From positions 12,008-76,007 of the forward strand of contig JANQNE010000004.1 in assembly GCA_028279725.1 (NCBI GenBank): a stretch of DNA of 64,000 bases, written 5' to 3'. How positions within the stretch are numbered: the stretch's first letter is position 1; every line of letters begins with the position of its first letter. Of this stretch, positions 4,309-59,005 are shown piece by piece. The notes under the pieces are model-generated. The model had not been told where the DNA came from, searched no databases, and was given only the letters and a program-made list of their open reading frames with translations. The position numbers were made by a program, and so were the translations under genes. This DNA is from Candidatus Nanoarchaeia archaeon (lineage in GTDB: Archaea > Nanobdellota > Nanobdellia > Woesearchaeales > JANQNE01).

Positions 4309-4611
4309 ATGATATTGTTTTACATACCATGCAAGAACAAGAAGGAAGCAGAGAAGATAGCTAAAGGATTGATCAAAAAGAATCTTGTCGCTTGTATGAA
4401 TGCATTTCCGATATCAAGTATGTATGAATGGAAGGGAAAATTAGTTAATGGAAAAGAACATTTGCTGCTGCTGAAGACAGCAAACAAGAACGCGAAGAAA
4501 GTGCAAGATGCTGTCGAGAAGATGCACAGTTATGATATTCCATGCATAATGAAGATAAAAGCAGAGGCTAATAAAAAATTTGAAAGGTGGATTGATGAAA
4601 ACAGTTGTTGA
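4309..4611 (+). CDS. cutA: CutA1 divalent-cation tolerance protein
   Basis: 100 aa. ...LVACMNAFPISSMYEWKGKLVNGKEHLLLLKT...HSYDIPCIM... matches the CutA1 pattern. Confidence 0.75.
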   Translation: MILFYIPCKNKKEAEKIAKGLIKKNLVACMNAFPISSMYEWKGKLVNGKEHLLLLKTANKNAKKVQDAVEKMHSYDIPCIMKIKAEANKKFERWIDENSC

Positions 4612-5746
4612 GGCGTCAAAAGCAGTTGCGTTTGCAGTTAAGCTGTGCAAACCCGGAGTTATTCCTATGTATCCTATAACTCCGCAGACTCATATAGTCG
4701 AAAGGCTTGCTGAGTTCATCAATGACGGCGAGCTTGATACAGAGATGGTGGATGTTGAGTCAGAGCACAGTGCTATATCTGCTGCTGTCGGTTCAAGTGC
4801 TATGGGGTTAAGGACGTTTACAGCTACTGCTTCACAGGGATTAGCTTTGATGCATGAGATACTTCATATTGTTTCTGGCATGAGGATGCCTGTTGTTATG
4901 GCTGTTGCTAACAGGGCTTTATCAGCTCCGATAAATATATGGAATGATCAGCAGGATTCAATATCTGCAAGAGATACAGGATGGATGCAGTTCTATGTTG
5001 AGAGTTCTCAGGAAGCACTTGACACTACAATACAGGCTTTTAAGATTGCCGAGGATTCAAGAGTTTTACTTCCGGCGATGGTCTGTCTGGATGGATTTAC
5101 TTTGAGTCATGTATGGGAGCCGGTTGATGTTCCTGATCAAAGAAAGGTTACTTCTTATCTTCCTAAGTATAAGCCGCTGCATAAATTAGATGTTGATAAT
5201 CCTAAAACATTTGGGCCTATTGGATATCCGAACAGCTTTATGCATTTCAAGCATGCAGAGCATGAGGCTATGGAACAGGCATTGCAGGTTATAAGGAAAG
5301 CGCATGATGATTATTCTAAGAAGTTTGATAGAAGCTATGGAAACGGACTGATTGAAGAGTATAAATTAGATGATGCTGATTATGCTATAGTTGGGATGGG
5401 AACTGTATGCGGAACAACAAGAGTTATTGTTGATGAGCTTAGGGAGAAAGGAGAAAAAGTTGGACTGCTTAAGGTGAGATGTTTCAGGCCATTTCCAAAA
5501 GATGAGATAATAAGAGCGTGCGGTAACCTTAAAGCAATAGCTGTGATTGACAGAGATATATCTTTAGGACAAGAGGGAGCTTTATTTGCTGAGATAAGAG
5601 ATGCACTTTATAATCAAAAGAAAAAGCCCATAGTTAATGGACATATATGCGGATTAGGCGGTAAAGATATTACATTAAATGATATTAAAGAAGTATTTGC
5701 TAAACTTAAGAAGGAGAAGGATGCAAAGACAGAGTGGATGCTTTGA
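4595..5746 (+). CDS. porA: pyruvate:ferredoxin oxidoreductase alpha subunit
   Basis: ATG 4595 preceded by AGGTGG (4585-4590). Contains YPITPQTHIVE and SEHSAISAAVG, typical of the alpha subunit. Overlaps the cutA end. Confidence 0.9.
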   Translation: MKTVVEASKAVAFAVKLCKPGVIPMYPITPQTHIVERLAEFINDGELDTEMVDVESEHSAISAAVGSSAMGLRTFTATASQGLALMHEILHIVSGMRMPVVMAVANRALSAPINIWNDQQDSISARDTGWMQFYVESSQEALDTTIQAFKIAEDSRVLLPAMVCLDGFTLSHVWEPVDVPDQRKVTSYLPKYKPLHKLDVDNPKTFGPIGYPNSFMHFKHAEHEAMEQALQVIRKAHDDYSKKFDRSYGNGLIEEYKLDDADYAIVGMGTVCGTTRVIVDELREKGEKVGLLKVRCFRPFPKDEIIRACGNLKAIAVIDRDISLGQEGALFAEIRDALYNQKKKPIVNGHICGLGGKDITLNDIKEVFAKLKKEKDAKTEWML

Positions 5747-14029: not shown

Positions 14030-14968
14030 ATGGGGGATATTAAAATGGGAAAAAATGATGCATTAGCTTATACTTTTCTAGCACTATCAGTAGTAGTTGT
14101 ACTTATTGTTGGTGTTTTTGCAATAAAGATGATAGTAAATCAGTCAGACAGTTCTGATGATTATGTGGAAGTTCCAGTAAGTTATATGGAACAGCCAAGT
14201 GATGATACACATACTAGTGTTGTTATCGATGATGCGCCTGAACCAGAGCCAGTTGCTCCAACAGTGCCAGATACAACACAGACAGTTACAGAACCTATTG
14301 TTCCTCAGACTCCAGTTGAGCCTGAAGAAGTTACATGTAAGACAAAGGTTAAAGCACTTGAAAATGATCTAGAGGATCTTTTTGAAGATATCGATGCTGC
14401 AAGAGATGACCTTTATGATTATTATGAAGATCTGGAAGATGCACAAGCTGATCTAGCAGATGCTCAGAACAGAAGTGATGACAGGGATGAAGACAGAGCA
14501 AAAGATGATATCGATGATGCAGAAAAAGACATCGAAGATGCTGAAGATGCTATAAAGGATCTTGAAGATGATATTGAGGAAAAGATCGAAGATCTTGATG
14601 ATGAAGAGATCGCATGTGATAAAGAGATTAGAAGCGAAGTCTATAAAGAGCTGAAAGCTAAGTTTGACACAGCATCCGACTGCAAGAGGGTTGTTGATGA
14701 AGTAGAAGAATACACTGATGATGCAGACGATGACCTTACTGATGCAGAGGATGAACTAGATGATGCTCAGGAAGATCTAAGCGAAGCAAAAGATGATATA
14801 TCAGCTTTGACAAGCAATTCAACTAAAGAAGAAGAGCTTAGAGCAGAAGCTGACAAGTGGGATGCAGAGCAGATGATCGACAGATGGGAAAACAGAGAAG
14901 ACAGCCTGAATGATTTAGTTGACTTCTACAAAGATACAGAAGACGACTTTGATAGAGAGTGCGATTAA
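14030..14968 (+). CDS. membrane-anchored, extremely acidic coiled-coil surface protein (hypothetical)
   Basis: 312 aa. N-terminal TM segment, Pro/Thr-rich linker, then about 200 aa dominated by D/E with an internally repeated DDxxDAEDxxxD pattern and 4 Cys. Confidence 0.6.
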   Translation: MGDIKMGKNDALAYTFLALSVVVVLIVGVFAIKMIVNQSDSSDDYVEVPVSYMEQPSDDTHTSVVIDDAPEPEPVAPTVPDTTQTVTEPIVPQTPVEPEEVTCKTKVKALENDLEDLFEDIDAARDDLYDYYEDLEDAQADLADAQNRSDDRDEDRAKDDIDDAEKDIEDAEDAIKDLEDDIEEKIEDLDDEEIACDKEIRSEVYKELKAKFDTASDCKRVVDEVEEYTDDADDDLTDAEDELDDAQEDLSEAKDDISALTSNSTKEEELRAEADKWDAEQMIDRWENREDSLNDLVDFYKDTEDDFDRECD

Positions 14969-14996
14969 AGAAGTTTTATATACTTCTTTTTTTATT
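14967..14996 (+). terminator. hairpin plus T-tract terminator
   Basis: AAAGAAGT-TTTATAT-ACTTCTTT (8-bp stem) overlaps the stop codon and is followed by a T-rich run. Confidence 0.5.
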
Positions 14997-15004
14997 TCTT
15001 TTTT

Positions 15005-15355
15005 ATGACAGATCTAATAGCTAGTTTTTCGGATGATAAAGCAGAGTTAGCACACTTAACCAGAGTTATAGATGGTGAGGAGTGGAGCAGGGTCTTATTG
15101 ATATCTTCTAAGGATGTTAAGGCTGATTTCAGCAAGAAAACTGAAGTTGTTAAGGTTGATCTTAAGAAGACCTTATCTGAGCTCATTGAGCAACTGACTG
15201 GCCTGTTTAAGATGGAGATAAAGGATACAGAAGTCGGTGTTAATCTGATATGTGGGAGTGGAAAAGAGCATATGGCAATACTTTCTGCTCTGCTGAAATC
15301 AGGTGTAGGGATAAGGTTTACTGCGCTTACTAAAGAAGGTGTGAAGGAAGTTTAG
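15005..15355 (+). CDS. hypothetical small alpha/beta protein
   Basis: 116 aa. VLLISSKD...VNLICGSGKEHMAILSALLKSGVGI suggests a Rossmann-like fold. No family assigned. Confidence 0.45.
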   Translation: MTDLIASFSDDKAELAHLTRVIDGEEWSRVLLISSKDVKADFSKKTEVVKVDLKKTLSELIEQLTGLFKMEIKDTEVGVNLICGSGKEHMAILSALLKSGVGIRFTALTKEGVKEV

Positions 15356-15357
15356 TT

Positions 15358-15672
15358 CTAATTAAGGGGTTCAAACATAAGAACAATCGAAGATTTATCA
15401 GAAACTGGACAAAATTTAGTTCCTTTTGGCATTTTTATTCCTTCTCCTTCCTTAAGTGTGATATCTCCTTCTTTTGTTAGAATCTTCATCTCTCCTTTGA
15501 ATACAATAAATACTTCATCTTTGTCGTCATGCTTATGCCACTTAAATTCTCCTTCAAATCTGTATGCATTTAATACAGAATTATTTATTGTTTCAATTTT
15601 TTCAGGTTTCCAAGCTTCTACATCTTTAATTCTTTCTGAAATCTCATTTAGATTGAATTTATTAAATGTCAT
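15358..15672 (-). CDS. cupin-domain protein
   Basis: 104 aa with the cupin motif FKWHKHDDKDEVFIVFKGEMKI. Confidence 0.7.
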   Translation of the reverse strand: MTFNKFNLNEISERIKDVEAWKPEKIETINNSVLNAYRFEGEFKWHKHDDKDEVFIVFKGEMKILTKEGDITLKEGEGIKMPKGTKFCPVSDKSSIVLMFEPLN

Positions 15673-15674
15673 TT

Positions 15675-15980
15675 TTAGTTCTTTTTTTCATACTTGCTCA
15701 ATACAGAAGTTATTATGAAAGTTATGAGTGTCATGCCGATGATCCAGCTTAGAAGAGTTTCGATGAGTGTTTCTGATCCATAAAGCTTGTACATAACTAG
15801 TGATGCTGCGATTCCGATGATGATTGGTATAGGCAAAGAACGTTTTAGGTTTTTTGCGAGTTTCTTGACAGGATCAGGCTGTTTTCTTTCCCTTGTCAAT
15901 CTTCTTTTTAGAATCTGCTCTCTTACCAGCTCTTCGATCTTGTTTTTTGGCTTTCTGAATAAGAGTTCGTCTTTTCTCAT
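15675..15980 (-). CDS. small membrane protein (hypothetical)
   Basis: Start set to ATG 15980, which shares ATGA with the upstream stop. Basic N-terminus followed by 2 TM segments. Confidence 0.45.
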   Translation of the reverse strand: MRKDELLFRKPKNKIEELVREQILKRRLTRERKQPDPVKKLAKNLKRSLPIPIIIGIAASLVMYKLYGSETLIETLLSWIIGMTLITFIITSVLSKYEKKN

Positions 15981-33722: not shown

Positions 33723-35276
33723 ATGATGGTTTCATATCACCATAGTGAGGGAGATGGCAAATTGCCGCAGAACGTAGATCCTAAGAGTGTAAACTTTAAG
33801 GTTGACAAGTCTAAGATAGTCGGCAGACCGATCTCTAATTATTCAAGATATGTTGTCAGAGAGCTTGTGGGTTATGGAGGAATGGGGACTGTTTTTAGGG
33901 CAACTGACAGTAATATAACAGATCATGAAGTTGCTGTGAAATTCTTCGGAAGCAAGATCTTAGAACAGATGAGCTATGACTGGCAGAAGGCCGAATATGT
34001 ACAGAGATTTTTAGGGGAGATAAAAGCGATGGTGGAATCAAATACACTGCCATGCGAAAATCTTATCGAAGTGTATGATGCAGGCATTACAAGAAACAAC
34101 AATCTTTATTTTGTCATGGATTACATAAAAGGAGGAGTTACTTTAGCTGATGTTCTTAGTTTCAGGGAAGGTAATTTTGATCTTGATGAAGTTTGTGTTA
34201 TAGAGGCACAGCTGCTGAACGCTCTTGCAAGCGCACACAGGTACAAGATAGTTAATAGAGATGTAAAACCTGACAACATAATGTTTGATTATATCCATAA
34301 GGTGATAAAGCTTACAGATTTTGGAGTATTTTTTGACAATAAAAGAGTTGGTGATGTCTATACGCAGATAAAACAAGATACTCCTGGGACAATACCTTAT
34401 CTTTCTAAGTTTCAAATAAAAAGACCAGAGATACCAATAGATCCTATGAAGGACAAGGTTTTTGAAGAAGGAGGAAAAAGATACTGTGAGATAAAAGGGA
34501 AGAGGTTTGAAGTCAGTGAAAGACATGGCGGCGAATTATATGTTGATTTTATCCCTGAGCAGAGCGATACGCAAGTTGCCTTAGGTTCATTATTCTATGA
34601 GATACTTACAGGCAGAAGACGTTTTATGGGGAAAGTTGACGATAAAGTTAAGGATGAGATAAGGGATTCTACGGCTAGAGATCTTTTTGTAGATAGGTCT
34701 GGAAGATATCCAAGAAGTTCTCCTATGCTAAAGGGGTTATCTAGGAGCAGTATCAGAGGGATAAACAGAATATTTTCTTTGTTCTGGAGGTATGATCTTA
34801 CAAAGATCCCTTCAGCAGAAGAAGGGAGAGAAAGAATATACGGGCTTTTAGATGGAAGGATCAATGAAAATGGGACTGTTGAGAAGATAATAAGCAAGAC
34901 TGATGAAGCTTGTGACAGAAAGATAAAAGAGATGATAAGAGGCATCAATGACGATGAATACCCAACACATGAATGGGATAAGCAGGAATTTACAAGAAGA
35001 CTTTCTTTTATCAAGAAGAGAAAAGGAGTTGAGATGGAAGGAGGGGAGATACTTAATGCTCTTAAGAATTCTTCAAAAAGGATGGTTTCTAATCTTGAAG
35101 GAAAATTAAAGACTATGACTAGAAGCGAGCTAGAGAATGCAAGAGATAAGCTTGAAACTAACAAGAATGCATGGACTGAGCTTGAGAAAGGAGAGCTTCC
35201 AAAAGAATACAAGGATATAACAAAGACTACTGCAAGAAAGATACTGCAGATAGATACAAAACTAAAAAATGGATAA
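33723..35276 (+). CDS. eukaryotic-like (Hanks-type) Ser/Thr protein kinase
   Basis: 517 aa. G-loop GYGGMGTVF, VAVKFF lysine, catalytic loop NRDVKPDNIMF, KLTDFG, and YEILTG in subdomain IX. Helical C-terminal region. Confidence 0.8.
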   Translation: MMVSYHHSEGDGKLPQNVDPKSVNFKVDKSKIVGRPISNYSRYVVRELVGYGGMGTVFRATDSNITDHEVAVKFFGSKILEQMSYDWQKAEYVQRFLGEIKAMVESNTLPCENLIEVYDAGITRNNNLYFVMDYIKGGVTLADVLSFREGNFDLDEVCVIEAQLLNALASAHRYKIVNRDVKPDNIMFDYIHKVIKLTDFGVFFDNKRVGDVYTQIKQDTPGTIPYLSKFQIKRPEIPIDPMKDKVFEEGGKRYCEIKGKRFEVSERHGGELYVDFIPEQSDTQVALGSLFYEILTGRRRFMGKVDDKVKDEIRDSTARDLFVDRSGRYPRSSPMLKGLSRSSIRGINRIFSLFWRYDLTKIPSAEEGRERIYGLLDGRINENGTVEKIISKTDEACDRKIKEMIRGINDDEYPTHEWDKQEFTRRLSFIKKRKGVEMEGGEILNALKNSSKRMVSNLEGKLKTMTRSELENARDKLETNKNAWTELEKGELPKEYKDITKTTARKILQIDTKLKNG

Positions 35277-37560
35277 AAGGATCGCAGCCAGGATAGAGAA
35301 GGCAACAACAAGAGATAAAGAGAATTCACTTACTGAGATAGTCAAAAGACTTGGAGAGAATCTTTATGGTGGTGTTAGGAGATTTATCGGCGGGACAGAG
35401 AAGAATGTTGTTGTTGAGATGTTCAGATATAACTCTTCTTCTGAGCTTGAAGAGATAAAAGGAAGAGTGAAGGCAAGGGATGAGGTTGCGAAGAATCTTG
35501 GAAATACAACAATACAGTCTCTTCATAATGATCCTAGATTTGCTTATGTTGTGAGCGGTTCAGATCATCATACTCTTAAGGAGCTTCTTTCAAGAACTGA
35601 TCTTTCAAAGAACGAAAGAGGAAATCTTGCGTATCAAGTATGTAATCTAGTCAAGAAATTACATTCTCAATCACAGAACCATCTTAATCTAACTTTAGAG
35701 AGGATAGTTATAGACAAAGATAATAGGCTTAGGGTGTTAACCAATCATACAAACATGATGCAGCCAGGTGTAAGAGATTTTATTCCTGAAGAGATCATCG
35801 CAAATATGAGTGAGATGGACAACGGAGAGGTTAAACAGAGGTATGATAGGAATTCTATTGATACGTTCCTGACAGGACTTATGGTCTATGAGATCTTAAC
35901 AGGAAAAAAACCCTCTGAACTTAAAGAATATAAGCTTATAAGAAACATATTTTCTGATGAAAGTTATAGGATGGTATCAGAAGATTTTGAAGACAGGCCT
36001 GGTTCATGGTGGAATGATAAAGTTAAGTTCAGATTTGACGATATCAATAAACAGATAGATCTTGGAGAAAGAGAGCTTAGTCTTGAGATCCCTGAAGGAG
36101 AGGAAAAGATATATCAGGAATTGCTTGAGAATTCAGAAGATTTTGAAGCTCCAGACACTGATGAATATAAGAGCGATGAATTTTTCAGAACTCTTACCTA
36201 TGGAAGAAAAGTGGGCAAACATCTTGGAGCTGTTCTTGATAAAGATATGATGAACAAATATTTCGGGCATAGGGGAAGATATAACAGAATCGATTTTGGA
36301 TTGCTAATGCTTACAAGAAGAAAGAAAAGACATAGTCCTGATATCGATTTTATACTTGACCCTCTTAAAAAGTTTGGAAAGAAGAGATATAAGAAGAGCC
36401 TGGAGAAGAAGATCGCTAAAACTTTCAAACAGGAAGAAGGAGAAGATTATTCTCTTATTGAAGATTACAGGAGGAAAGTATTTCAGAAGAAGACACAGCG
36501 TAAGATGAAGATTGGCGGGAGTATACTTGCTGCTGCGATCTTAGTATATGCTCTTAATGCTGTTGTCCCTAAAGTATTGCCTGAGAAACATAAGAAGAAA
36601 TTTGAAGAGTTTACAAAGCCGAAGATAGAATTTGTCAAAGAAGGTGTAAGTGATTTTTCAGCTTACTTGTTTAAAGCATTGTCTAAGGTCACCCCTACAC
36701 TTGATGGTGGGATGGAAAGAAGAGATGATGTAGATTCTGTCTATGTTTTGGGAAAAGAAGATCTAGTTCCTCTTGGGATAGAATATACAAATCCTGATGT
36801 TTCTGTAAGATGTACTGATAATGATTTTTTCTATGATCCTGTTGAGAATATTTTAATTGTTAAAGATAGGGTTAAACTTGAGAAGGGAACCAATCTTGTC
36901 GAGTTTGAAGCTAAAGATGTTAATGGAGATAAAGAGGAGTTTGTCGTAAGGCTGTATAATAAAGACGGTTCTGATAAGATAATCAAAGGGAAGAAATCAA
37001 GGAAAAAGGGAAGAAAAAAATCCAAGAAAGCTGAAGTTAAGGGGCATAATGTCAGCAGAGATGGATATATAACTGAGACTGCTGGAAAATCACTCTGTGA
37101 TATATTAAGGGGAACAAAATACAGCAATAAATATGTGCATATAAGGTATAAGAACAAGATAAACATATTTTCTAAGATAGGTGGAAAATATTACAAAGGA
37201 GACAGGAGAGCAAAATTAGGCATTGATTATGGAAAGTGGGCGAAGATAATTACAGGAGCGTATGCAAGAGAGGTAAATGACAGAGTATATCAGCTTAATA
37301 ATGTAGGAAGTAAACATCTTGGTGAAGTATATCTTGGAAAGAAGCGGATAATGGCAAATTATGGAAGTATGTTTATCTATGAATGTAGGACAGGAAAGAT
37401 AAGAAGTTTGGAAAAGAATATGCAGAACGGAAGATTTTATGAAAAGAGATTTATACTTGATGACAAATATATTCCTGTGTATAGCGGTGATATGATATCG
37501 AAGAACGAGGGAAGATTGAGGGCTGCTGTAAGTAGAATGAAGCTGCCTTTGAAAAATTAG
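35269..37560 (+). CDS. membrane-spanning pseudokinase with extracytoplasmic domain
   Basis: 763 aa. Kinase fold is recognisable (YEILTG; HSQSQNHLNLTLERIVID), but the catalytic residues are replaced: VVVEMF (K to E), HLN for HRD, TNH for DFG. One TM segment near residue 420 and a poly-basic linker KGKKSRKKGRKKSKK. Confidence 0.7.
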   Translation: MDKRIAARIEKATTRDKENSLTEIVKRLGENLYGGVRRFIGGTEKNVVVEMFRYNSSSELEEIKGRVKARDEVAKNLGNTTIQSLHNDPRFAYVVSGSDHHTLKELLSRTDLSKNERGNLAYQVCNLVKKLHSQSQNHLNLTLERIVIDKDNRLRVLTNHTNMMQPGVRDFIPEEIIANMSEMDNGEVKQRYDRNSIDTFLTGLMVYEILTGKKPSELKEYKLIRNIFSDESYRMVSEDFEDRPGSWWNDKVKFRFDDINKQIDLGERELSLEIPEGEEKIYQELLENSEDFEAPDTDEYKSDEFFRTLTYGRKVGKHLGAVLDKDMMNKYFGHRGRYNRIDFGLLMLTRRKKRHSPDIDFILDPLKKFGKKRYKKSLEKKIAKTFKQEEGEDYSLIEDYRRKVFQKKTQRKMKIGGSILAAAILVYALNAVVPKVLPEKHKKKFEEFTKPKIEFVKEGVSDFSAYLFKALSKVTPTLDGGMERRDDVDSVYVLGKEDLVPLGIEYTNPDVSVRCTDNDFFYDPVENILIVKDRVKLEKGTNLVEFEAKDVNGDKEEFVVRLYNKDGSDKIIKGKKSRKKGRKKSKKAEVKGHNVSRDGYITETAGKSLCDILRGTKYSNKYVHIRYKNKINIFSKIGGKYYKGDRRAKLGIDYGKWAKIITGAYAREVNDRVYQLNNVGSKHLGEVYLGKKRIMANYGSMFIYECRTGKIRSLEKNMQNGRFYEKRFILDDKYIPVYSGDMISKNEGRLRAAVSRMKLPLKN

Positions 37561-54317: not shown

Positions 54318-54752
54318 TTACAAATCAACCTCATTGATCCAGTTGCCGTGCTTATTACATTTTTCGATGACTGTCACTTTTCCACTGTCTGCTTTTAAGA
54401 AGATAACGGCTCCTGGATTAAGATTTCCCGGTGTCAGGTGTATCCTTGATATGAACTTTTTATCAAGGTAGTAGTCGATGAATGTTATGTAATGGTCAGC
54501 TTCCATGGGGTGCAGAACACTTCCAACCTTTACGACTATGTCTTTGCAGCCTTCTTCTCCTATGATACATGCATCAGCTACTTCTATAACTGGAACATGT
54601 TTCTCTTTTCCTTCGTTTTCTTTAGCATTTATCGCATCTTTCTCTTCAAAAGATGTTTTTGGTGAGAAGCACACAGGGCATCTATCTGGTGCAGCTCCAT
54701 CTATTGCCATAAACCCGCATGTCTGGCATTCAAATCCTTTCATTTTCTTCAT
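54318..54752 (-). CDS. superoxide reductase (desulfoferrodoxin-like, rubredoxin-type N-terminal centre)
   Basis: 144 aa. N-terminal CQTCG...CPVC. SOR domain with KHVPVIEV, HPMEADHYI and CNKHGNW. Confidence 0.8.
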   Translation of the reverse strand: MKKMKGFECQTCGFMAIDGAAPDRCPVCFSPKTSFEEKDAINAKENEGKEKHVPVIEVADACIIGEEGCKDIVVKVGSVLHPMEADHYITFIDYYLDKKFISRIHLTPGNLNPGAVIFLKADSGKVTVIEKCNKHGNWINEVDL

Positions 54753-54765
54753 CCTCCGTTGGTTT

Positions 54766-55146
54766 TTACCATAATCCTAATTTCAATCCGATCAGTTCTA
54801 CGAAAACGTAGAGCCATATTATATATGCTATGACTGCGATTATTAATGAGAGCAGTATAAAGTTTATTACAAACCTTCTTCTTTTCTTCAGTTTGTCTAT
54901 AGTGCATATCTTTTCTTTCCTGTAGATGTACCAGAAGAGTGCAGCTGCGAGCAGGAGAAGTGCAACTCCTCTGAATGCCCATTTGTATATTCCATATAAT
55001 GTGTCTGAAAGTGATGCTGCGAAGCTGACTGTGCTTATTCCGAAGAGGACTAATACAACAGGTGTGAAACAGCATAATCCACCTACAAAAGCTGTAACTG
55101 GTATGATCTTTTTCAGAAAGCTCTTTTGTTTTTCGTCTAGTTTCAT
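54766..55146 (-). CDS. membrane protein with intramembrane CC motif
   Basis: ATG 55146 shares ATGA with the upstream stop. Contains GGLCCFTPVVLVLFG. 4 TM segments. Confidence 0.5.
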   Translation of the reverse strand: MKLDEKQKSFLKKIIPVTAFVGGLCCFTPVVLVLFGISTVSFAASLSDTLYGIYKWAFRGVALLLLAAALFWYIYRKEKICTIDKLKKRRRFVINFILLSLIIAVIAYIIWLYVFVELIGLKLGLW

Positions 55147-55409
55147 CTTTTTACAAACAGACCGCACCAGCAGTCTCCTCTTTCTTTCCATGTGCTTTGG
55201 ATCTTGAAATTACAAGGACAGATAAGCTCAAGATCACGTTCTTTTGTTCTGTCTCTTAGCCTGCAAGGGCAGAGCTTGAGTCCGTGCTTTTTTTCATTGA
55301 TAAGCACACCTTCTATTATAGTGTCAACATGCTTCCTGTCTGGGTTAAGAATGAAGTCATTCTTTTCTGTGAAATTTTCCCAGGCTTTTCTGAGTTGTTC
55401 TTTGTTCAT
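55143..55409 (-). CDS. ferredoxin:thioredoxin reductase catalytic-subunit-like protein
   Basis: 88 aa with the FTR-beta cysteine pattern CPCRL...CPCNF...CWCGLF. Confidence 0.75.
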   Translation of the reverse strand: MNKEQLRKAWENFTEKNDFILNPDRKHVDTIIEGVLINEKKHGLKLCPCRLRDRTKERDLELICPCNFKIQSTWKERGDCWCGLFVKR

Positions 55410-55552
55410 ATTTCCATGACTTTTACAGCTTCTTCCTTGTCTATCTCAACATAAACGTTCTTGTTCTGGCATGTAGGGCATATTTCTGGGCCATTCATAC
55501 CATGGTGTATATCATTACAAACATTACACCTGAAGAATTTCTTATCAGCCAT
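55406..55552 (-). CDS. rubredoxin-like zinc-ribbon micro-protein
   Basis: Not in the ORF track. 48 aa: MADKKFFRCNVCNDIHHGMNGPEICPTCQNKNVYVEIDKEEAVKVMEI. GGGTGAT lies before the ATG, and the stop shares ATGA with the FTR-like gene. Confidence 0.6.
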   Translation of the reverse strand: MADKKFFRCNVCNDIHHGMNGPEICPTCQNKNVYVEIDKEEAVKVMEI

Positions 55553-55609
55553 TTTATCACCCTTTTTTCCAACCAAAAGTTTATATACTTTTAAACTTTG
55601 TTTTTTATC

Positions 55610-55987
55610 ATGAGCAAAAAAGTCCCTAAATCACTGCGTATATGGTTTCTGATACATTTTATCGTTGATATGCTGTTTGCTATACCTTTGATCGTGATAC
55701 CAAGATATTTTCTTAAGTTTTTGGGATTTATGTCAGCAGACCCGTTTACTGCGAGATTAGTCGGGGCAGCTTTGATCGGAATCGGCGGAGTTTCTTTAGT
55801 TGCGCACAACAAGGGAAATGAAAGCTATAGTTCTTTGTTGAGTCTGAAGATCTTATGGTCATTAGCTGCGATAGTTGCAATACTTTGGACAATGATTGAA
55901 GGCGGACCTTTTGTGGGCTGGTATATATTGGGAGTATTTGCTGTATTTTCTGGAATCTGGATGTATTACAAGCGCAAGATCAGATAA
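55610..55987 (+). CDS. 4-TM membrane protein (hypothetical)
   Basis: ATG 55610 (the track uses TTG 55598). Hydrophobic, no recognisable motif. Confidence 0.5.
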   Translation: MSKKVPKSLRIWFLIHFIVDMLFAIPLIVIPRYFLKFLGFMSADPFTARLVGAALIGIGGVSLVAHNKGNESYSSLLSLKILWSLAAIVAILWTMIEGGPFVGWYILGVFAVFSGIWMYYKRKIR

Positions 55988-56459
55988 TTTTCCAGTCGTC
56001 CTTGTTGAATTCCAGCTTAACTTTTTCTAAAAGATTTTTGTGCCTTAGTTCCTGGATAGCAGCTTCACTGAAAGCTTCTCTTGCCTCTCCAAAATTAAGA
56101 TGCTGCGCTATAAGATTGTAGTCATCAGCAGCTTCCTGTTCTTTTTGGATAGCGAAGTCTAAAGTTTCGTTAATGCCTTTTATCTCTTCGCTAAGAAGCT
56201 CATCCTTCTCTATGTCTTTCAGAAGCTTAAGGTCCTGCAATGGAGCGTTGTTTACGATACGGATTATAGACAGGTCCATCTTTCTGAACAGCCTTTCGTG
56301 GATCGTCTCTTCTTCTGAGAGTTTTAGGAAAAGTTCCCTTATGTTCTTGTTTGTTGCCTGTTCTGCAAGCTTTTTGTACATGCGCTGAGCAGCCTGCTCT
56401 TTAAGAACTGCGCTGTCGAACATAGTTTTTACGAACGAATCCATCTTAACTGTTTGCAA
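55980..56459 (-). CDS. ferritin-like (rubrerythrin-family) diiron-domain protein
   Basis: 159 aa with ExxH-type pairs (EEETIHERL, QELRHKN). Confidence 0.6.
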   Translation of the reverse strand: MQTVKMDSFVKTMFDSAVLKEQAAQRMYKKLAEQATNKNIRELFLKLSEEETIHERLFRKMDLSIIRIVNNAPLQDLKLLKDIEKDELLSEEIKGINETLDFAIQKEQEAADDYNLIAQHLNFGEAREAFSEAAIQELRHKNLLEKVKLEFNKDDWKII

Positions 56460-56889
56460 GAGCTAATTCTCCTGTCAACAATAGCTTATGCTTTTTTTCT
56501 TCATCAGCAAACGTCTGGAACAGATCCTTTGCTTCCGGATCATTGACAGCTTCTCTTAGTTTTTCATAGGTTATCTGTGCAAGAGCTTCCTGCTTTATCG
56601 CAAAAGCATACATATCCCTTAGATCACTGAACTCTTCGATCGGAGCCATCTCAACCTCTTCAGCTACATCAATCTCACTTATCTTGTCAGGAATTACCTT
56701 TGTTCCTAATTGTTCAAAGTTAAGGCTTTCCAGTTTTTCTTTGTGGTTTCTTTCCTGTTCAGAAAGCCTTAGAAGACCTTCTTTGATCTTTTCATCCTGT
56801 GATAATTCAGCAAGTTTTTTGTAGAAAAGATGAAAATATTCCTCATCTCTTATCGCATTTTCTATTATCAGTTTTAATTGTTCTATCAT
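56446..56889 (-). CDS. ferritin-like (rubrerythrin-family) diiron-domain protein, paralog
   Basis: 147 aa with EQERNHKEKL and DEEKKHKLL. Confidence 0.6.
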   Translation of the reverse strand: MIEQLKLIIENAIRDEEYFHLFYKKLAELSQDEKIKEGLLRLSEQERNHKEKLESLNFEQLGTKVIPDKISEIDVAEEVEMAPIEEFSDLRDMYAFAIKQEALAQITYEKLREAVNDPEAKDLFQTFADEEKKHKLLLTGELALANS

Positions 56890-57404
56890 TTTAACCTCTC
56901 CTCTGAAAGCTCTAAGTGGTCTGTCTCAACCTGAACAAGAGCTCCAAAGATCTTCCTTATAGTTTCGTTGTCAGATTCAGCTGCTGCTTTTCTGTAGAAT
57001 TCTATGGCTTTTGTCTCTCTTGCATGTGCATCTTCAAGATCTTCCTTGTAATCTTCTGAGCAAGGGTCATCTCCTTTTGGAATGGATCCTAGTTTTAGGA
57101 TCTTTTTCCAGATAGACGCATGCTCTGCCTCAACTTTTCCAAGTGCCTTGAAAAGCTTTTTTCCTTCTGGGTCTTTTACTTTTTCAGCAGCGCAGAAATA
57201 GAAAGCTGAGTTGCTTATCTCTACTTTCAATGCATATTCTGCATTTGCTCTGTCTTTTTCGTTGAGATCTACGTCGAAGTTAACTTCAGCATCTTTGAAC
57301 TCTTTGATGAATTTTTGTTTTGCACCGCAGAAAGGGCAATTTGTTGGTGCGTCATCCCCTATATAAGGGTCTCCGCATATTTCACAACGCCATAGTTTTG
57401 CCAT
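56886..57404 (-). CDS. reverse rubrerythrin (N-terminal rubredoxin-like + diiron domain)
   Basis: 172 aa. WRCEICG...CPFCG, then EAEHASIW and ETDHLEL. Confidence 0.8.
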   Translation of the reverse strand: MAKLWRCEICGDPYIGDDAPTNCPFCGAKQKFIKEFKDAEVNFDVDLNEKDRANAEYALKVEISNSAFYFCAAEKVKDPEGKKLFKALGKVEAEHASIWKKILKLGSIPKGDDPCSEDYKEDLEDAHARETKAIEFYRKAAAESDNETIRKIFGALVQVETDHLELSEERLK

Positions 57405-57414
57405 CTTTAATCAC

Positions 57415-57960
57415 CTATTCACAAAGCTCGCATCCTGGCTTGAAGCACATACATTCTGGCTCATAGTATTCTCTTGGATGCTTGCATGAAGGACATTTTT
57501 CAGGCGGTTCTTCTCCTTCATAGATATAACCACATTTTGAGCATTTCCATCTGATCGGCTTGTTTCTTTTGAAGACAGCTCCTTTTTCTACCATCTCAAG
57601 CAGTTTCCTGTATCTGTTCTCATGCTCTTTCTCTACTTTAGAAATATTCCTGAATAATTTTGCAGCTTCTTCGTTGCCTTCTTCTTTTGCTTCTTTTTCC
57701 ATCGTCGGATACATATCTGTGTTCTCGTAATGCTCACCTTCGATAGCTGCTTTCAGGTTAGCTTTTGTATCGCCAATACCCTTCAGAAGCTTGAACTCGT
57801 CTTTTGCATGCTGTTTTTCATTATCAGCAGTCTCTTCAAAGAGCCTTGCGATATAATGATATCCTTCTTTTCTTGCTACTTTAGCAAAATAAGTGTATTT
57901 GTTTCTTGCCTGACTTTCTCCTGCGAAAGCTGCTTTTAAATTTTCTTCTGTCTTTGACAT
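57415..57960 (-). CDS. rbr: rubrerythrin
   Basis: ATG 57960 preceded by GAGGGGGAT (track ORF starts at GTG 58017). Contains AGESQARNKY, two ExxH sites, and C-terminal WKCSKCG...CPSC, plus an extra tail CMCFKPGCELCE. Confidence 0.9.
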   Translation of the reverse strand: MSKTEENLKAAFAGESQARNKYTYFAKVARKEGYHYIARLFEETADNEKQHAKDEFKLLKGIGDTKANLKAAIEGEHYENTDMYPTMEKEAKEEGNEEAAKLFRNISKVEKEHENRYRKLLEMVEKGAVFKRNKPIRWKCSKCGYIYEGEEPPEKCPSCKHPREYYEPECMCFKPGCELCE

Positions 57961-57973
57961 CTTATCCCCCTCA

Positions 57974-58114
57974 TCACATATTTTTACAGTTGATGCATGG
58001 ATTGCATCCTCTACCACATCCAGAACTACTGCTATATTTAATAGTTACGGAATCTGAGCTTGATTTATAATCAATGCTTTGAACCTGATAATCATTATTA
58101 TTTGAGTAGTACAT
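57974..58114 (-). CDS. 46-aa Ser/Asn-rich micro-ORF ending in GCGRGCNPCINCKNM
   Basis: Not in the track. AAAGGTGAAAAAG precedes the ATG. Ends in double TGA stops 13 nt before the rbr ATG. Confidence 0.4.
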   Translation of the reverse strand: MYYSNNNDYQVQSIDYKSSSDSVTIKYSSSSGCGRGCNPCINCKNM

Positions 58115-58153
58115 CTTTTTCACCTTTGAATCAAAAAAATAAAAAAAGAAGGT

Positions 58154-58210
58154 CTAACAGCAACCTTCATCTTTGTCTTCGTCTTTTTTACTTCCACCAC
58201 AACATCCCAT
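58154..58210 (-). CDS. 18-aa micro-ORF MGCCGGSKKDEDKDEGCC
   Basis: Not in the track. GGAGGT lies 6 nt before the ATG. Followed by two T7 tracts. Confidence 0.3.
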   Translation of the reverse strand: MGCCGGSKKDEDKDEGCC

Positions 58211-58213
58211 TTT

Positions 58214-58354
58214 TTAACCTCCATATACTATTTTTATGTCTTCTTTTGTCAAGTCATGCTCGATCTGCTCAATAAGGTCGCAGTCAACGCATTCGTCAAG
58301 GAATGCGCGCTTATCCTTGCACTTGCCTTGTTTGCAAGTAATGGGTTCAGTCAT
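58214..58354 (-). CDS. 46-aa four-Cys micro-ORF ending in Gly-Gly
   Basis: Not in the track. GGAGGTGG lies 5 nt before the ATG. MTEPITCKQGKCKDKRAFLDECVDCDLIEQIEHDLTKEDIKIVYGG. Confidence 0.45.
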   Translation of the reverse strand: MTEPITCKQGKCKDKRAFLDECVDCDLIEQIEHDLTKEDIKIVYGG

Positions 58355-58371: not shown

Positions 58372-58503
58372 CTATTGGCAGGCCTGACTTGTATTGAATG
58401 TTACCCTTTCTGAAAATTCCTGTTTTTTACCATCATTCCAGTTGGTCACAGGCCTGAAATAACCAACTATCCTGCTATATACTTCACATTTTACTTTTTT
58501 CAT
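58372..58503 (-). CDS. 43-aa ORF with an NrdD-like glycyl-radical loop motif
   Basis: Not in the track. The ATG shares ATGA with the Fur-family stop. MKKVKCEVYSRIVGYFRPVTNWNDGKKQEFSERVTFNTSQACQ resembles the extreme C-terminus of class III ribonucleotide reductases. Confidence 0.55.
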   Translation of the reverse strand: MKKVKCEVYSRIVGYFRPVTNWNDGKKQEFSERVTFNTSQACQ

Positions 58504-58874
58504 CTTTTACACCTCTTGCATCTTCCATATATGATTATGTTGATACATTCCGGGCTGAATTCTTTGGTTGTTAATTTTTTCATAGCGCATTTTGCAACCT
58601 CTTTGTTGAATATATCTATGATCTTTCCGCAGCTCTTGCATACACAGTGCTGATGACAGCTTATATCTCCGTCAAAATGAAGCTCTTTGTTTATCTCTAA
58701 TCTTGTGATTATACCTTCATCAGCTAAAATGTTTAAGTTCCTGTAGACAGTAGCTAAGCTTACTGCAGGAAGATCTTTCTTCACTGCGTTGTATACCTTC
58801 TCAGCAGTAGGATGCGTCTTTACGCTTCTTAAGTATTCCAGAATTTTTGTCTTTTGGCTTGTATTTCTTCTCAT
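58500..58874 (-). CDS. Fur-family metalloregulator (PerR-like by context)
   Basis: 124 aa. HPTAEKVY...LATVYRNLNILADEG, HQHCVCKSCGKIID, and C-terminal CKRC. Confidence 0.9.
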   Translation of the reverse strand: MRRNTSQKTKILEYLRSVKTHPTAEKVYNAVKKDLPAVSLATVYRNLNILADEGIITRLEINKELHFDGDISCHQHCVCKSCGKIIDIFNKEVAKCAMKKLTTKEFSPECINIIIYGRCKRCKR

Positions 58875-58883
58875 CTTTCTTAT

Positions 58884-58898
58884 TGATAATGATTACTA
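58884..58898. promoter_or_regulatory. Fur/PerR-box-like 7-1-7 element upstream of the Fur-family gene
   Basis: TGATAATGATTACTA (minus strand: TAGTAATCATTATCA) matches 13/15 positions of TGATAATNATTATCA. It lies 10-24 nt before the ATG and downstream of a TTTATATAA TATA-like box. Confidence 0.5.
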
Positions 58899-59005
58899 AT
58901 TAGAAAACATTACTATTATATAAATGTTTTGTTTTTTGTGTGATATTTTTGTCTCAGAATTATATTTTTGAATATGGAGTTTGTTATTAATGTGTTTTGC
59001 TTAGT

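Follow-up and report, generated by a model that had tools for sequence, protein, structure and literature searches.

In class III ribonucleotide reductases (RNRs), the activase NrdG uses S-adenosylmethionine (SAM) to abstract a hydrogen atom from a conserved glycine of NrdD, and the resulting glycyl radical generates a thiyl radical in the catalytic barrel; oxygen cuts the backbone at the glycyl radical, which inactivates the enzyme irreversibly (see also PMC12288474). The sole repair device known for oxygen-cleaved glycyl-radical enzymes is GrcA/YfiD, which serves pyruvate formate-lyase (PFL) (PMC13450708, PMC8683613), and cofactors of this type have a link to oxygen stress and occur in phage-encoded versions (PMC8683613, PMC13450708). 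According to a 2026 review, no glycyl-radical enzyme apart from the formate lyases has a known spare-part protein (PMC13450708); earlier authors likewise knew spare parts for PFL only and left their existence for other glycyl-radical enzymes open (Andorfer et al. 2021, PMC8683613). The full-text literature that we searched describes neither a split NrdD nor an NrdD-type spare part, which is not proof of absence. Here we analyse a small open reading frame (ORF), named mini1, at 58372..58503 on the minus strand of a 64,000-nucleotide stretch (the window) of contig JANQNE010000004.1 from a Candidatus Nanoarchaeia archaeon, which encodes a 43-aa stand-alone glycyl-radical domain (GRD) of NrdD type. 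We lean, if not heavily, towards the view that mini1 is a stress-linked, replaceable radical cartridge for an NrdD that is itself made in two pieces.

The translation of mini1, MKKVKCEVYSRIVGYFRPVTNWNDGKKQEFSERVTFNTSQACQ, aligns with positions 532-562 of the 562 in the Pfam NRDD profile PF13597 (E = 1.3e-10; 41.1 bits, with the gathering score at 26.2) and with positions 550-580 of the 581 in the NrdD model TIGR02487 (E = 6e-10). It carries the R-[IV]-x-G-Y loop of NrdD followed by the W-N-x-G-K-x2-E motif, and its radical glycine is predicted to be Gly14, within RIVGY; in the profile of the GRD family, this RIVGY aligns on the glycyl loop of Thermotoga maritima NrdD (4COI, residues 615-645), the same protein being the sole, and marginal, match in a sequence search of the PDB (E = 0.0098). 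A Pfam scan at E <= 1 returned PF13597 NRDD alone, with no match to the PFL-type Gly_radical domain. The body features of NrdD, i.e., the ten-stranded alpha/beta barrel and the finger-loop cysteine, are not present in the 43 residues, nor is the Cys/His metal site that precedes the glycyl loop: mini1 has only one cysteine there (C6), and the C-x2-H...C-x3-H segment is encoded separately, on the NrdD body. Scores against NCBIfam equivalog models are 38-39 bits, where the cut-offs are 326-585, and mini1 is, to judge from these profiles, a fragment-type homologue of NrdD and not an NrdD enzyme. In the window, tblastn gave only chance-level matches to an NrdD body (E > 2), and there is no RNR among the eight longest ORFs, which were scanned. 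When modelled alone with AlphaFold2 from a 26-sequence alignment, mini1 forms a hairpin (residues 6-10 and 15-18), tipped by Gly14, together with a helix at 24-31, which fits a GRD at low confidence (mean predicted local distance difference test, pLDDT, 65.9); a Foldseek search of this model against the PDB gave no match.

Upstream of mini1, a Shine-Dalgarno-like AGAGGTG lies 7-13 nt 5' of the ATG, and the start codon itself (58503-58501) overlaps, as ATGA, the TGA (58502-58500) of a Fur-family gene, hereafter perR. A preliminary description of this stretch had read the ORF in just this way, as sharing its ATGA with the Fur-family stop, as the C-terminal glycyl-radical loop of NrdD without a reductase body, and as the head of a string of rubrerythrin and peroxide-defence genes (four rubrerythrin-family genes and a desulfoferrodoxin follow on the same strand, as set out below). 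All of these elements are confirmed by the letters and the profiles, far beyond chance.

The reductase to which such a loop could belong is encoded in the same genome. An independent assembly (Logan SRR20820740_101352; locus L008) shares 6154 bases with the window, all of them identical, carries the same mini1 peptide, and extends beyond the window end, so that both a loop-less NrdD body and an NrdG are found through it, outside the window. At L008 6303-7010, about 150 nt past the window end and 5.6 kb from mini1, is an NrdG-type radical-SAM activase; about 14 kb from mini1, a cluster at 14445-15871 encodes an NrdD body, a second GRD peptide and a glutaredoxin. The body gene (14865-15871) has its 5' part cut by the contig end, its full product being about 690 aa as estimated from the complete 693-aa homologue on L003, and its C-terminus, ...HEHSEEELEKFGVEEKEIEVMTK (...CPVHGYVSGEHHTCPHEHSEEELEKFGVEEKEIEVMTK) with EVMTK as the last residues before the stop, has no glycyl loop. 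The canonical place right after the body gene is held by a 59-aa GRD peptide, mini2 (MKKIRCEVYSRIVGYFRPINNWNDGKKQEFFERVAFHEKKSMETPVKLVVPTAQPCETC), whose ATG overlaps the TGA of the body as ATGA behind an AGAGGTG motif and which is followed by an 80-aa glutaredoxin/NrdH-like gene; mini1 follows perR instead.

Over a core of 30 codons, mini1 and mini2 show four amino-acid differences, with a proportion of differences of 0.65 at synonymous sites (pS) and 0.07 at non-synonymous sites (pN) and a dN/dS of about 0.05; against orthologues, dN/dS is 0.03-0.12. Because the synonymous sites are nearly saturated and pN is low, we regard mini1 as an old duplicate under strong constraint and not a decaying fragment, and on this comparison it is a second paralogue of the GRD subunit, an extra copy of the normal subunit type. 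The preliminary description had itself raised the possibility that mini1 is merely the detached tail of a decayed nrdD, and this is countered both by the divergence values and by the identity of the gene upstream, which is perR.

Division of the enzyme into body and radical peptide is not confined to this archaeon. The loci that we classified number 80 for each of three sources, namely GTDB genomes, JGI metagenomes and IMG/VR. Among the GTDB loci, there were 63 fused NrdDs and 17 mini-ORFs, 14 of the latter with a body within 800 nt upstream (nine of these with nrdG downstream), one an orphan (L017) and two classed as undetermined. The metagenomes yielded 20 fused NrdDs and 62 mini-ORFs: 46 had a body at that distance, with nrdG downstream in 41, six were orphans, one was linked to PerR and rubrerythrin (L113), and nine were undetermined. 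In IMG/VR, where 56 mini-ORFs were found and five fused NrdDs, a body lay within 800 nt upstream in a single case (nrdG was not counted), 48 were orphans, and seven were undetermined. By record title, the split loci belong to Chloroflexia/Anaerolineae, Thermodesulfobacteriota/Caldimicrobium, Aquificales, Elusimicrobia and unclassified archaeal metagenome-assembled genomes (MAGs).

Split bodies end in ...FSVCPVHGYISGEHHTCPYEHTGEDLDKFGVEEKKVEVMADE or similar, after a C-x2-H...C-P-x-E-H segment; those of L001, L002 and L003 read ...CPVHGY..GEH..CP.EH... and have no glycyl loop. Fused relatives (L108, L025, L151, L034) contain the same C-P-x-[ED]-H-[ST]-x-E-E-L segment together with a variable linker of 20-50 aa, and it is into this linker that the fission point maps. 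We reject the explanation that the split genes are frameshifts introduced during assembly, since the GRD gene variously overlaps the 3' end of the body (by 14 nt on L001 and by 8 nt on L003 and L004), follows it after a gap of 50-800 nt, or lies some 5 kb 3' of it and immediately before nrdG (L002), since each gene has its own start codon, and since the split recurs on dozens of independent contigs. With artefact thus set aside, the sequences indicate that many lineages have a class III RNR in two pieces, the body and a radical peptide that can be detached from it.

Several loci show further rearrangements of the same parts. On L091, a 171-aa protein (4433-4948, plus strand) encoded between a split body of 689 aa and nrdG fuses a GRD to a C-terminal thioredoxin-like domain, which shows that radical peptide and redoxin can be a single polypeptide. 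Many fused NrdDs run about 120-200 aa past the glycyl loop into a thioredoxin/glutaredoxin-like domain (...TCPNCK...QAPTLV...); these include L011, L014, L018, L020 and about 50 other GTDB loci (Clostridia, Lentisphaerae, Eggerthellaceae), as well as the gut phage MT835493 (L259), and their sequence suggests that the extension is a built-in reductant domain. Other NrdD bodies are lengthened by insertions to 1000-1900 aa (L001 4691-8014, L002 104-3124, L116 2369-5377, L220 418-6102); those of L001 and L002 have faint precomputed matches to inteins or LAGLIDADG, and on L001, L002 and L116 the GRD is, in addition, encoded apart from the long body.

The detached peptide itself belongs to a large group of small proteins. 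A search of 5.8 billion proteins gave 249 matches, of which the best 120 are all 38-75 aa long, and an exhaustive hidden Markov model (HMM) search of 1.84 billion cluster representatives gave 5024 matches at E <= 1e-3, of which 2681 reach E <= 1e-10 and the top 150 all measure 49-109 aa; the type of ORF is evidently conserved. Across 26 aligned members, 16 positions are invariant (C6, E7, V8, Y9, S10, R11, V13, G14, Y15, R17, P18, W22, N23, K26, E29 and R33), and mini1 keeps every one. We propose these proteins as a family, not a curated one, of about 40-110 aa with its own start and the core C-E-V-Y-S-R-x-V-G-Y-x-R-P-x3-W-N-x2-K-x2-E-x3-R. Neither Pfam, NCBIfam nor PHROG has a model dedicated to stand-alone GRD proteins, whose public labels are "hypothetical protein" or "anaerobic ribonucleoside-triphosphate reductase" (e.g., the 68-aa WP_428042694.1); the record of one such peptide, P0044, bears the label DPANN group archaeon. 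We tried the tail-less peptides of 43-44 aa as a PerR-type subclass and rejected it, in that P0050 and P0033 are ordinary body-GRD-nrdG loci and P0018 has a phage-like context.

Two variants of the peptide deserve separate mention. Many body-coupled GRD peptides end in Cys-rich tails (CETC, GCGCGA, SSCGC, CKTC and others), among them L008 (mini2), L012, L016, L037, L038, L088, L137, L147 and L157 as well as P0013, P0036 and P0042; a glutaredoxin-like gene often lies 3' of the genes for these peptides, and the tails recall the C-terminal Cys pairs that re-reduce the active sites of class I and II RNRs. In a second subtype, of 90-145 aa, the glycyl loop is preceded by a CxxC...CxxC ribbon at the N-terminus and by a beta-rich insert. 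Proteins of this subtype were found after an intact NrdD (L132 864-1184), beside PerR (L113 398-757), in phages (viral loci L188, L212, L234 and L248) and in an archaeal virus (ANMV-1, L251 3680-4114).

What sets mini1 apart from mini2 is the company that it keeps. The perR gene (58500..58874, minus strand) encodes a 124-aa Fur-family protein (PF01475, E = 1e-28) that scores highest in NCBIfam against PerR models (94 and 79 bits); because these scores lie under the curated cut-offs, we call the product PerR-like and not PerR. On the other side, 17 nt past the mini1 stop and behind a GGAGGTG motif, begins orf46 (58214..58354, minus strand), which encodes a 46-aa four-Cys protein (CKQGKC...CVDC). 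Since mini1 and perR overlap by ATGA, which implies a common transcript and, probably, translational coupling, it is very likely that perR, mini1 and orf46 are transcribed together. A TATA-like TTTATATAA (58916..58924, minus strand) about 45 nt 5' of perR is a candidate archaeal promoter of this unit, and a hairpin with a T-run, TTTTTTTATT (58138..58168, minus strand), matches a terminator-like consensus and is a candidate for the end of its transcript. Between the TATA-like motif and the gene, 10-24 nt 5' of the perR ATG, lies a Fur/PerR-box-like 7-1-7 palindrome, TGATAATGATTACTA (58884..58898), which differs from TNATAATNATTATNA by one mismatch and is a weak candidate operator. A scan of all 64 kb, which are AT-rich (37% G+C), found 17 sites against 13.9 expected; the sole perfect site, which sits within a small coding ORF, and one of the two single-mismatch sites fall at the mini1 locus. 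PerR-dependent control of mini1 is plausible on this arrangement.

Downstream on the same strand is the peroxide-defence string, opened by a rubrerythrin gene at 57415..57960 (PF02915, E = 1.5e-30; RUBY_RBDX, E = 3e-14; true ATG at 57960). It continues, by Pfam assignment and on the minus strand, with three further rubrerythrin-family genes (56886-57404, 56446-56889 and 55980-56459), a rubredoxin-like gene (55406-55576), FeThRed_B, i.e., the catalytic subunit of a ferredoxin:thioredoxin/disulfide reductase (55143-55409), and a desulfoferrodoxin gene (54318-54752); a redoxin gene also lies 3' of mini1 on this strand. The string is interrupted by a 129-aa ORF on the plus strand (55598-55987) with no Pfam match, and its span also holds a 141-aa ORF (54766-55191) with a weak MerT-like match. 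We take the genes at 54318..57404 as context for a stress linkage and do not imply that they are co-transcribed with mini1. In Methanosarcina barkeri, electrons reach the class III RNR from a ferredoxin:disulfide reductase related to FeThRed_B by way of an NrdH-like redoxin; by analogy, part of the "stress" string may also serve the reductase. Between the GRD gene and the rubrerythrin are three tiny Cys-rich ORFs, which may encode metal or redox peptides: orf46 itself, an 18-aa ORF MGCCGGSKKDEDKDEGCC (58154-58210, minus strand) that begins 4 nt past the orf46 stop, and a peptide of 46-49 aa (57974-58123, minus strand) ending ...SGCGRGCNPCINCKNM, an end motif also present in a 66-aa ORF of L170.

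Parts of this arrangement recur elsewhere. The protein encoded by orf46 has no match in Pfam, NCBIfam or PHROG and only three members among the 5.8 billion proteins, and these three, in the window and on contigs L170 and L260, join PerR to the GRD gene, so that orf46 appears from its neighbours to be a conserved partner of both. On L170, a 44-aa GRD gene (69% identical) comes first, and after it an orf46 homologue (67%), then a small ORF rich in Cys, then a rubrerythrin 76% identical to that of the window; on L260, orf46 comes directly after a PerR-like gene and there is no GRD gene. Because L170 thus has GRD without perR, and L260 perR-orf46 without GRD, we reject the idea that the window's arrangement is a frameshifted PerR-GRD fusion. 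The ORF that follows PerR-orf46 on L260 (500-542) begins MVKINEKAPGFSE..., presumably resembling the N-terminus of a peroxiredoxin, which would fit a place for orf46 in a peroxide regulon. On L113, the gene for a PerR homologue (51% identical) has about 55 nt in common with a GRD gene of the CxxC...CxxC ribbon subtype, with a rubrerythrin 34 nt further on; since the GRD is of a different subtype, this linkage probably arose independently. The linkage of perR and mini1 noted in the preliminary description recurs in part: L113 reproduces PerR-GRD-rubrerythrin, L170 keeps GRD-orf46-rubrerythrin without perR, and the syntenic relative L003/L004 lacks the insert.

Extra or unaccompanied GRD genes also occur in other settings. 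On L132, the last 261 aa of an NrdD whose fused loop is intact are followed by a separate 106-aa Zn-ribbon+GRD protein and then by NrdG; by analogy, this is where one would look for the gene of a genuine spare part when the enzyme itself is whole; on L152, two tandem GRD genes lie between a split body and nrdG. The 48 orphan loci of IMG/VR have a GRD or Zn-ribbon+GRD gene and no NrdD body match within 800 nt upstream, and when flanks of up to 6 kb per side were fetched, only three of the mini-carrying IMG/VR loci showed any body match and one showed nrdG. Terminase or portal genes lie within a few kb of the GRD gene on L172, L179, L206 and L214 and in the L017 prophage of a Lentisphaerae MAG. 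The cultured-phage collection contained no stand-alone GRD protein other than that of the archaeal virus ANMV-1, a 144-aa "anaerobic ribonucleoside triphosphate reductase" made up of Zn ribbon and GRD only, and otherwise held fused NrdDs. A GRD gene that travels with neither body nor activase makes sense only if its product works in trans, on an enzyme of the host.

The mechanism that we favour for mini1 would run as follows. NrdG would take a hydrogen from Gly14, and the hairpin would dock into the barrel of the NrdD body, where its radical would give rise to the thiyl radical for nucleotide reduction. Oxygen would cleave the backbone at the glycine and destroy the radical, with the loss, in a split enzyme, of just a peptide of about 50 aa that could be exchanged. 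Peroxide or oxygen stress would lift repression by PerR, extra cartridges would be made alongside the scavenging enzymes, and once reducing conditions returned, undamaged bodies would be re-armed quickly by NrdG. For the family as a whole, we hold it to be an evenly balanced proposition that NrdD-type GRDs are widespread, unnamed, autonomous radical cartridges put to three uses: as the obligatory detachable subunit of a two-piece class III RNR (in Chloroflexi, Thermodesulfobacteriota, Aquificales, Elusimicrobia and unclassified or DPANN-labelled archaea); as extra stress-linked or tandem spares that would re-arm the RNR after oxygen damage, and would then be the first spare-part system outside PFL; and as auxiliary genes by which phages would keep or restart host deoxynucleotide synthesis during infection.

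Several observations weigh against a stress-linked cartridge. Among about 150 mini-ORFs, and leaving the genome of the window aside, just two contigs show a GRD gene linked to PerR or rubrerythrin, and on one of these, L170, the GRD gene has no PerR gene ahead of it; a perR-GRD insert is also missing in front of the rubrerythrin of the close syntenic relative L003/L004. Enrichment of PerR/Fur boxes is not significant over the window, the count of sites with at most one mismatch being reached in 28 of 100 shuffles. To produce additional copies of an oxygen-labile module under oxidative stress would be useful only if these persisted into recovery, and mini1 alone was modelled at low confidence (pLDDT 66). 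Finally, mini1 ends in ...QACQ and is without the tail of about 20 aa (EK.S.E.PV.LV.P...C..C) that mini2 carries, and could for this reason bind differently from mini2. The missing insert and the weak box evidence would also suit an ordinary second GRD isoform, expressed constitutively or under some other condition, that came to lie beside perR by an accident of rearrangement; most members of the family are a single GRD gene beside a split body, and the tandem duplicates on L152 have no stress genes. We nevertheless consider this unlikely, if the most serious of the alternatives, given that the four-nucleotide overlap with perR would make the two genes one transcript, that independent GRD-rubrerythrin (L170) and PerR-GRD (L113, in the other subtype) linkages exist, and that orf46 ties PerR to the GRD gene on three contigs.

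The missing tail could also mean that mini1 is a stress-induced decoy, which caps the NrdD body or titrates NrdG and thereby keeps the enzyme radical-free, and so protected, or halts synthesis of deoxynucleoside triphosphates, and its expression would indeed fall under conditions where a glycyl radical cannot survive. A decoy, however, would need none of the family-invariant residues, and in mini1 all of these, including the RIVGY glycine and its flanks, are under strong purifying selection; moreover, on L253 and L257 the one GRD gene next to the split body and nrdG encodes a tail-less peptide of 44 aa, so the tail is not required for function, and we judge the decoy improbable. An origin from a phage or mobile element, leaving mini1 with no role in host stress or one relevant to the virus only, is more doubtful again: orphan GRD genes are common on IMG/VR contigs and occur in prophage, and the insert is missing from the syntenic relative, but mini1 is flanked by perR, orf46 and rubrerythrins with no phage genes, and so few replacements separate it from mini2 that an old duplication within the lineage fits better. 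That mini1 is a non-functional relic or a spurious ORF hardly merits credence, short as it is and missed by default ORF tracks, in view of its Pfam match, its full set of invariant positions, the dN/dS and saturation values, its Shine-Dalgarno motif and start-stop coupling, and its recovery from the independent Logan assembly. A stress-linked cartridge thus stays our preferred account of mini1. The GrcA-like spare part envisaged in the preliminary description survives in modified form: L170, L113, L132, L152 and the phage orphans are contexts in which such a part would be at home, whereas the NrdD of this host is already a two-piece enzyme and not an intact one awaiting rescue.

Elsewhere in the window are genes for S24e, S27ae, Spt4 and an Rpb7-like subunit, which mark the host as archaeal, probably of a DPANN-type lineage to go by how related MAGs are labelled, and, at 33723-37560 on the plus strand, two adjoining large proteins (517 and 763 aa) with Ser/Thr protein-kinase domains, in what is a small-genome archaeon.

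If our reading of mini1 is right, it supplies a testable candidate spare part for the enzyme that makes DNA precursors in anaerobes and points to a cheap means by which small-genome anaerobes might survive transient oxygen. Class III RNR, which the papers searched describe as a single catalytic polypeptide plus activase, would be a two-piece enzyme in many lineages, and the family would account for hundreds of small genes, many of them in phages, that are labelled "hypothetical" or mislabelled as full reductases. The autonomous glycyl-radical module is a known type of protein; new here are the enzyme that it would serve and the split-enzyme basis.

Compared with the canonical NrdD-NrdG systems of T4, E. 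coli and T. maritima (1H79, 4COI), the locus has the same RxxGY loop, the same W-N-x-G-K-x2-E-F motif and an NrdG nearby, and it differs in that the loop is a separate polypeptide and the body ends after C-x2-H...C-P-x-E-H and a short acidic linker. A radical housed on a subunit of its own, which can be exchanged and docks onto the barrel of the catalytic one, would parallel the stable radical of class I NrdB, and bears on ideas of how RNRs evolved. NrdB is a ferritin-like di-metal tyrosyl-radical protein that relies on long-range radical transfer; it has no homology to the GRD, whose hairpin of roughly 50 aa would insert directly into the barrel. Gene fission near a C-terminal functional module is also known from the split class II NrdJa/NrdJb of Pseudomonas aeruginosa, a precedent cited in PMC9669993, but the RNR class is another, the piece detached here holds the radical cofactor and not a Zn finger with redox tail, and extra unlinked and phage copies exist for the GRD. 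The closest likeness is to GrcA/YfiD of E. coli and Y06I of phage T4 (IPR011140), small stand-alone proteins that bear only a glycyl-radical loop, with presumed activation by the cognate radical-SAM activase and action in trans on a large glycyl-radical enzyme; the genome of mini1 likewise encodes such an enzyme and an activase, and the strict GrcA layout of an intact enzyme with an extra GRD is that of L132. In contrast to GrcA, mini1 is homologous to the NrdD C-terminus (PF13597) and not to the PFL-type Gly_radical domain, has 43 aa as opposed to 127 and no disordered N-terminal region, and would have as partners RNR and NrdG in place of PFL and its activating enzyme, PFL-AE. Because the host NrdD never had a fused loop, mini1 would be of the normal subunit type, and not a repair part only.

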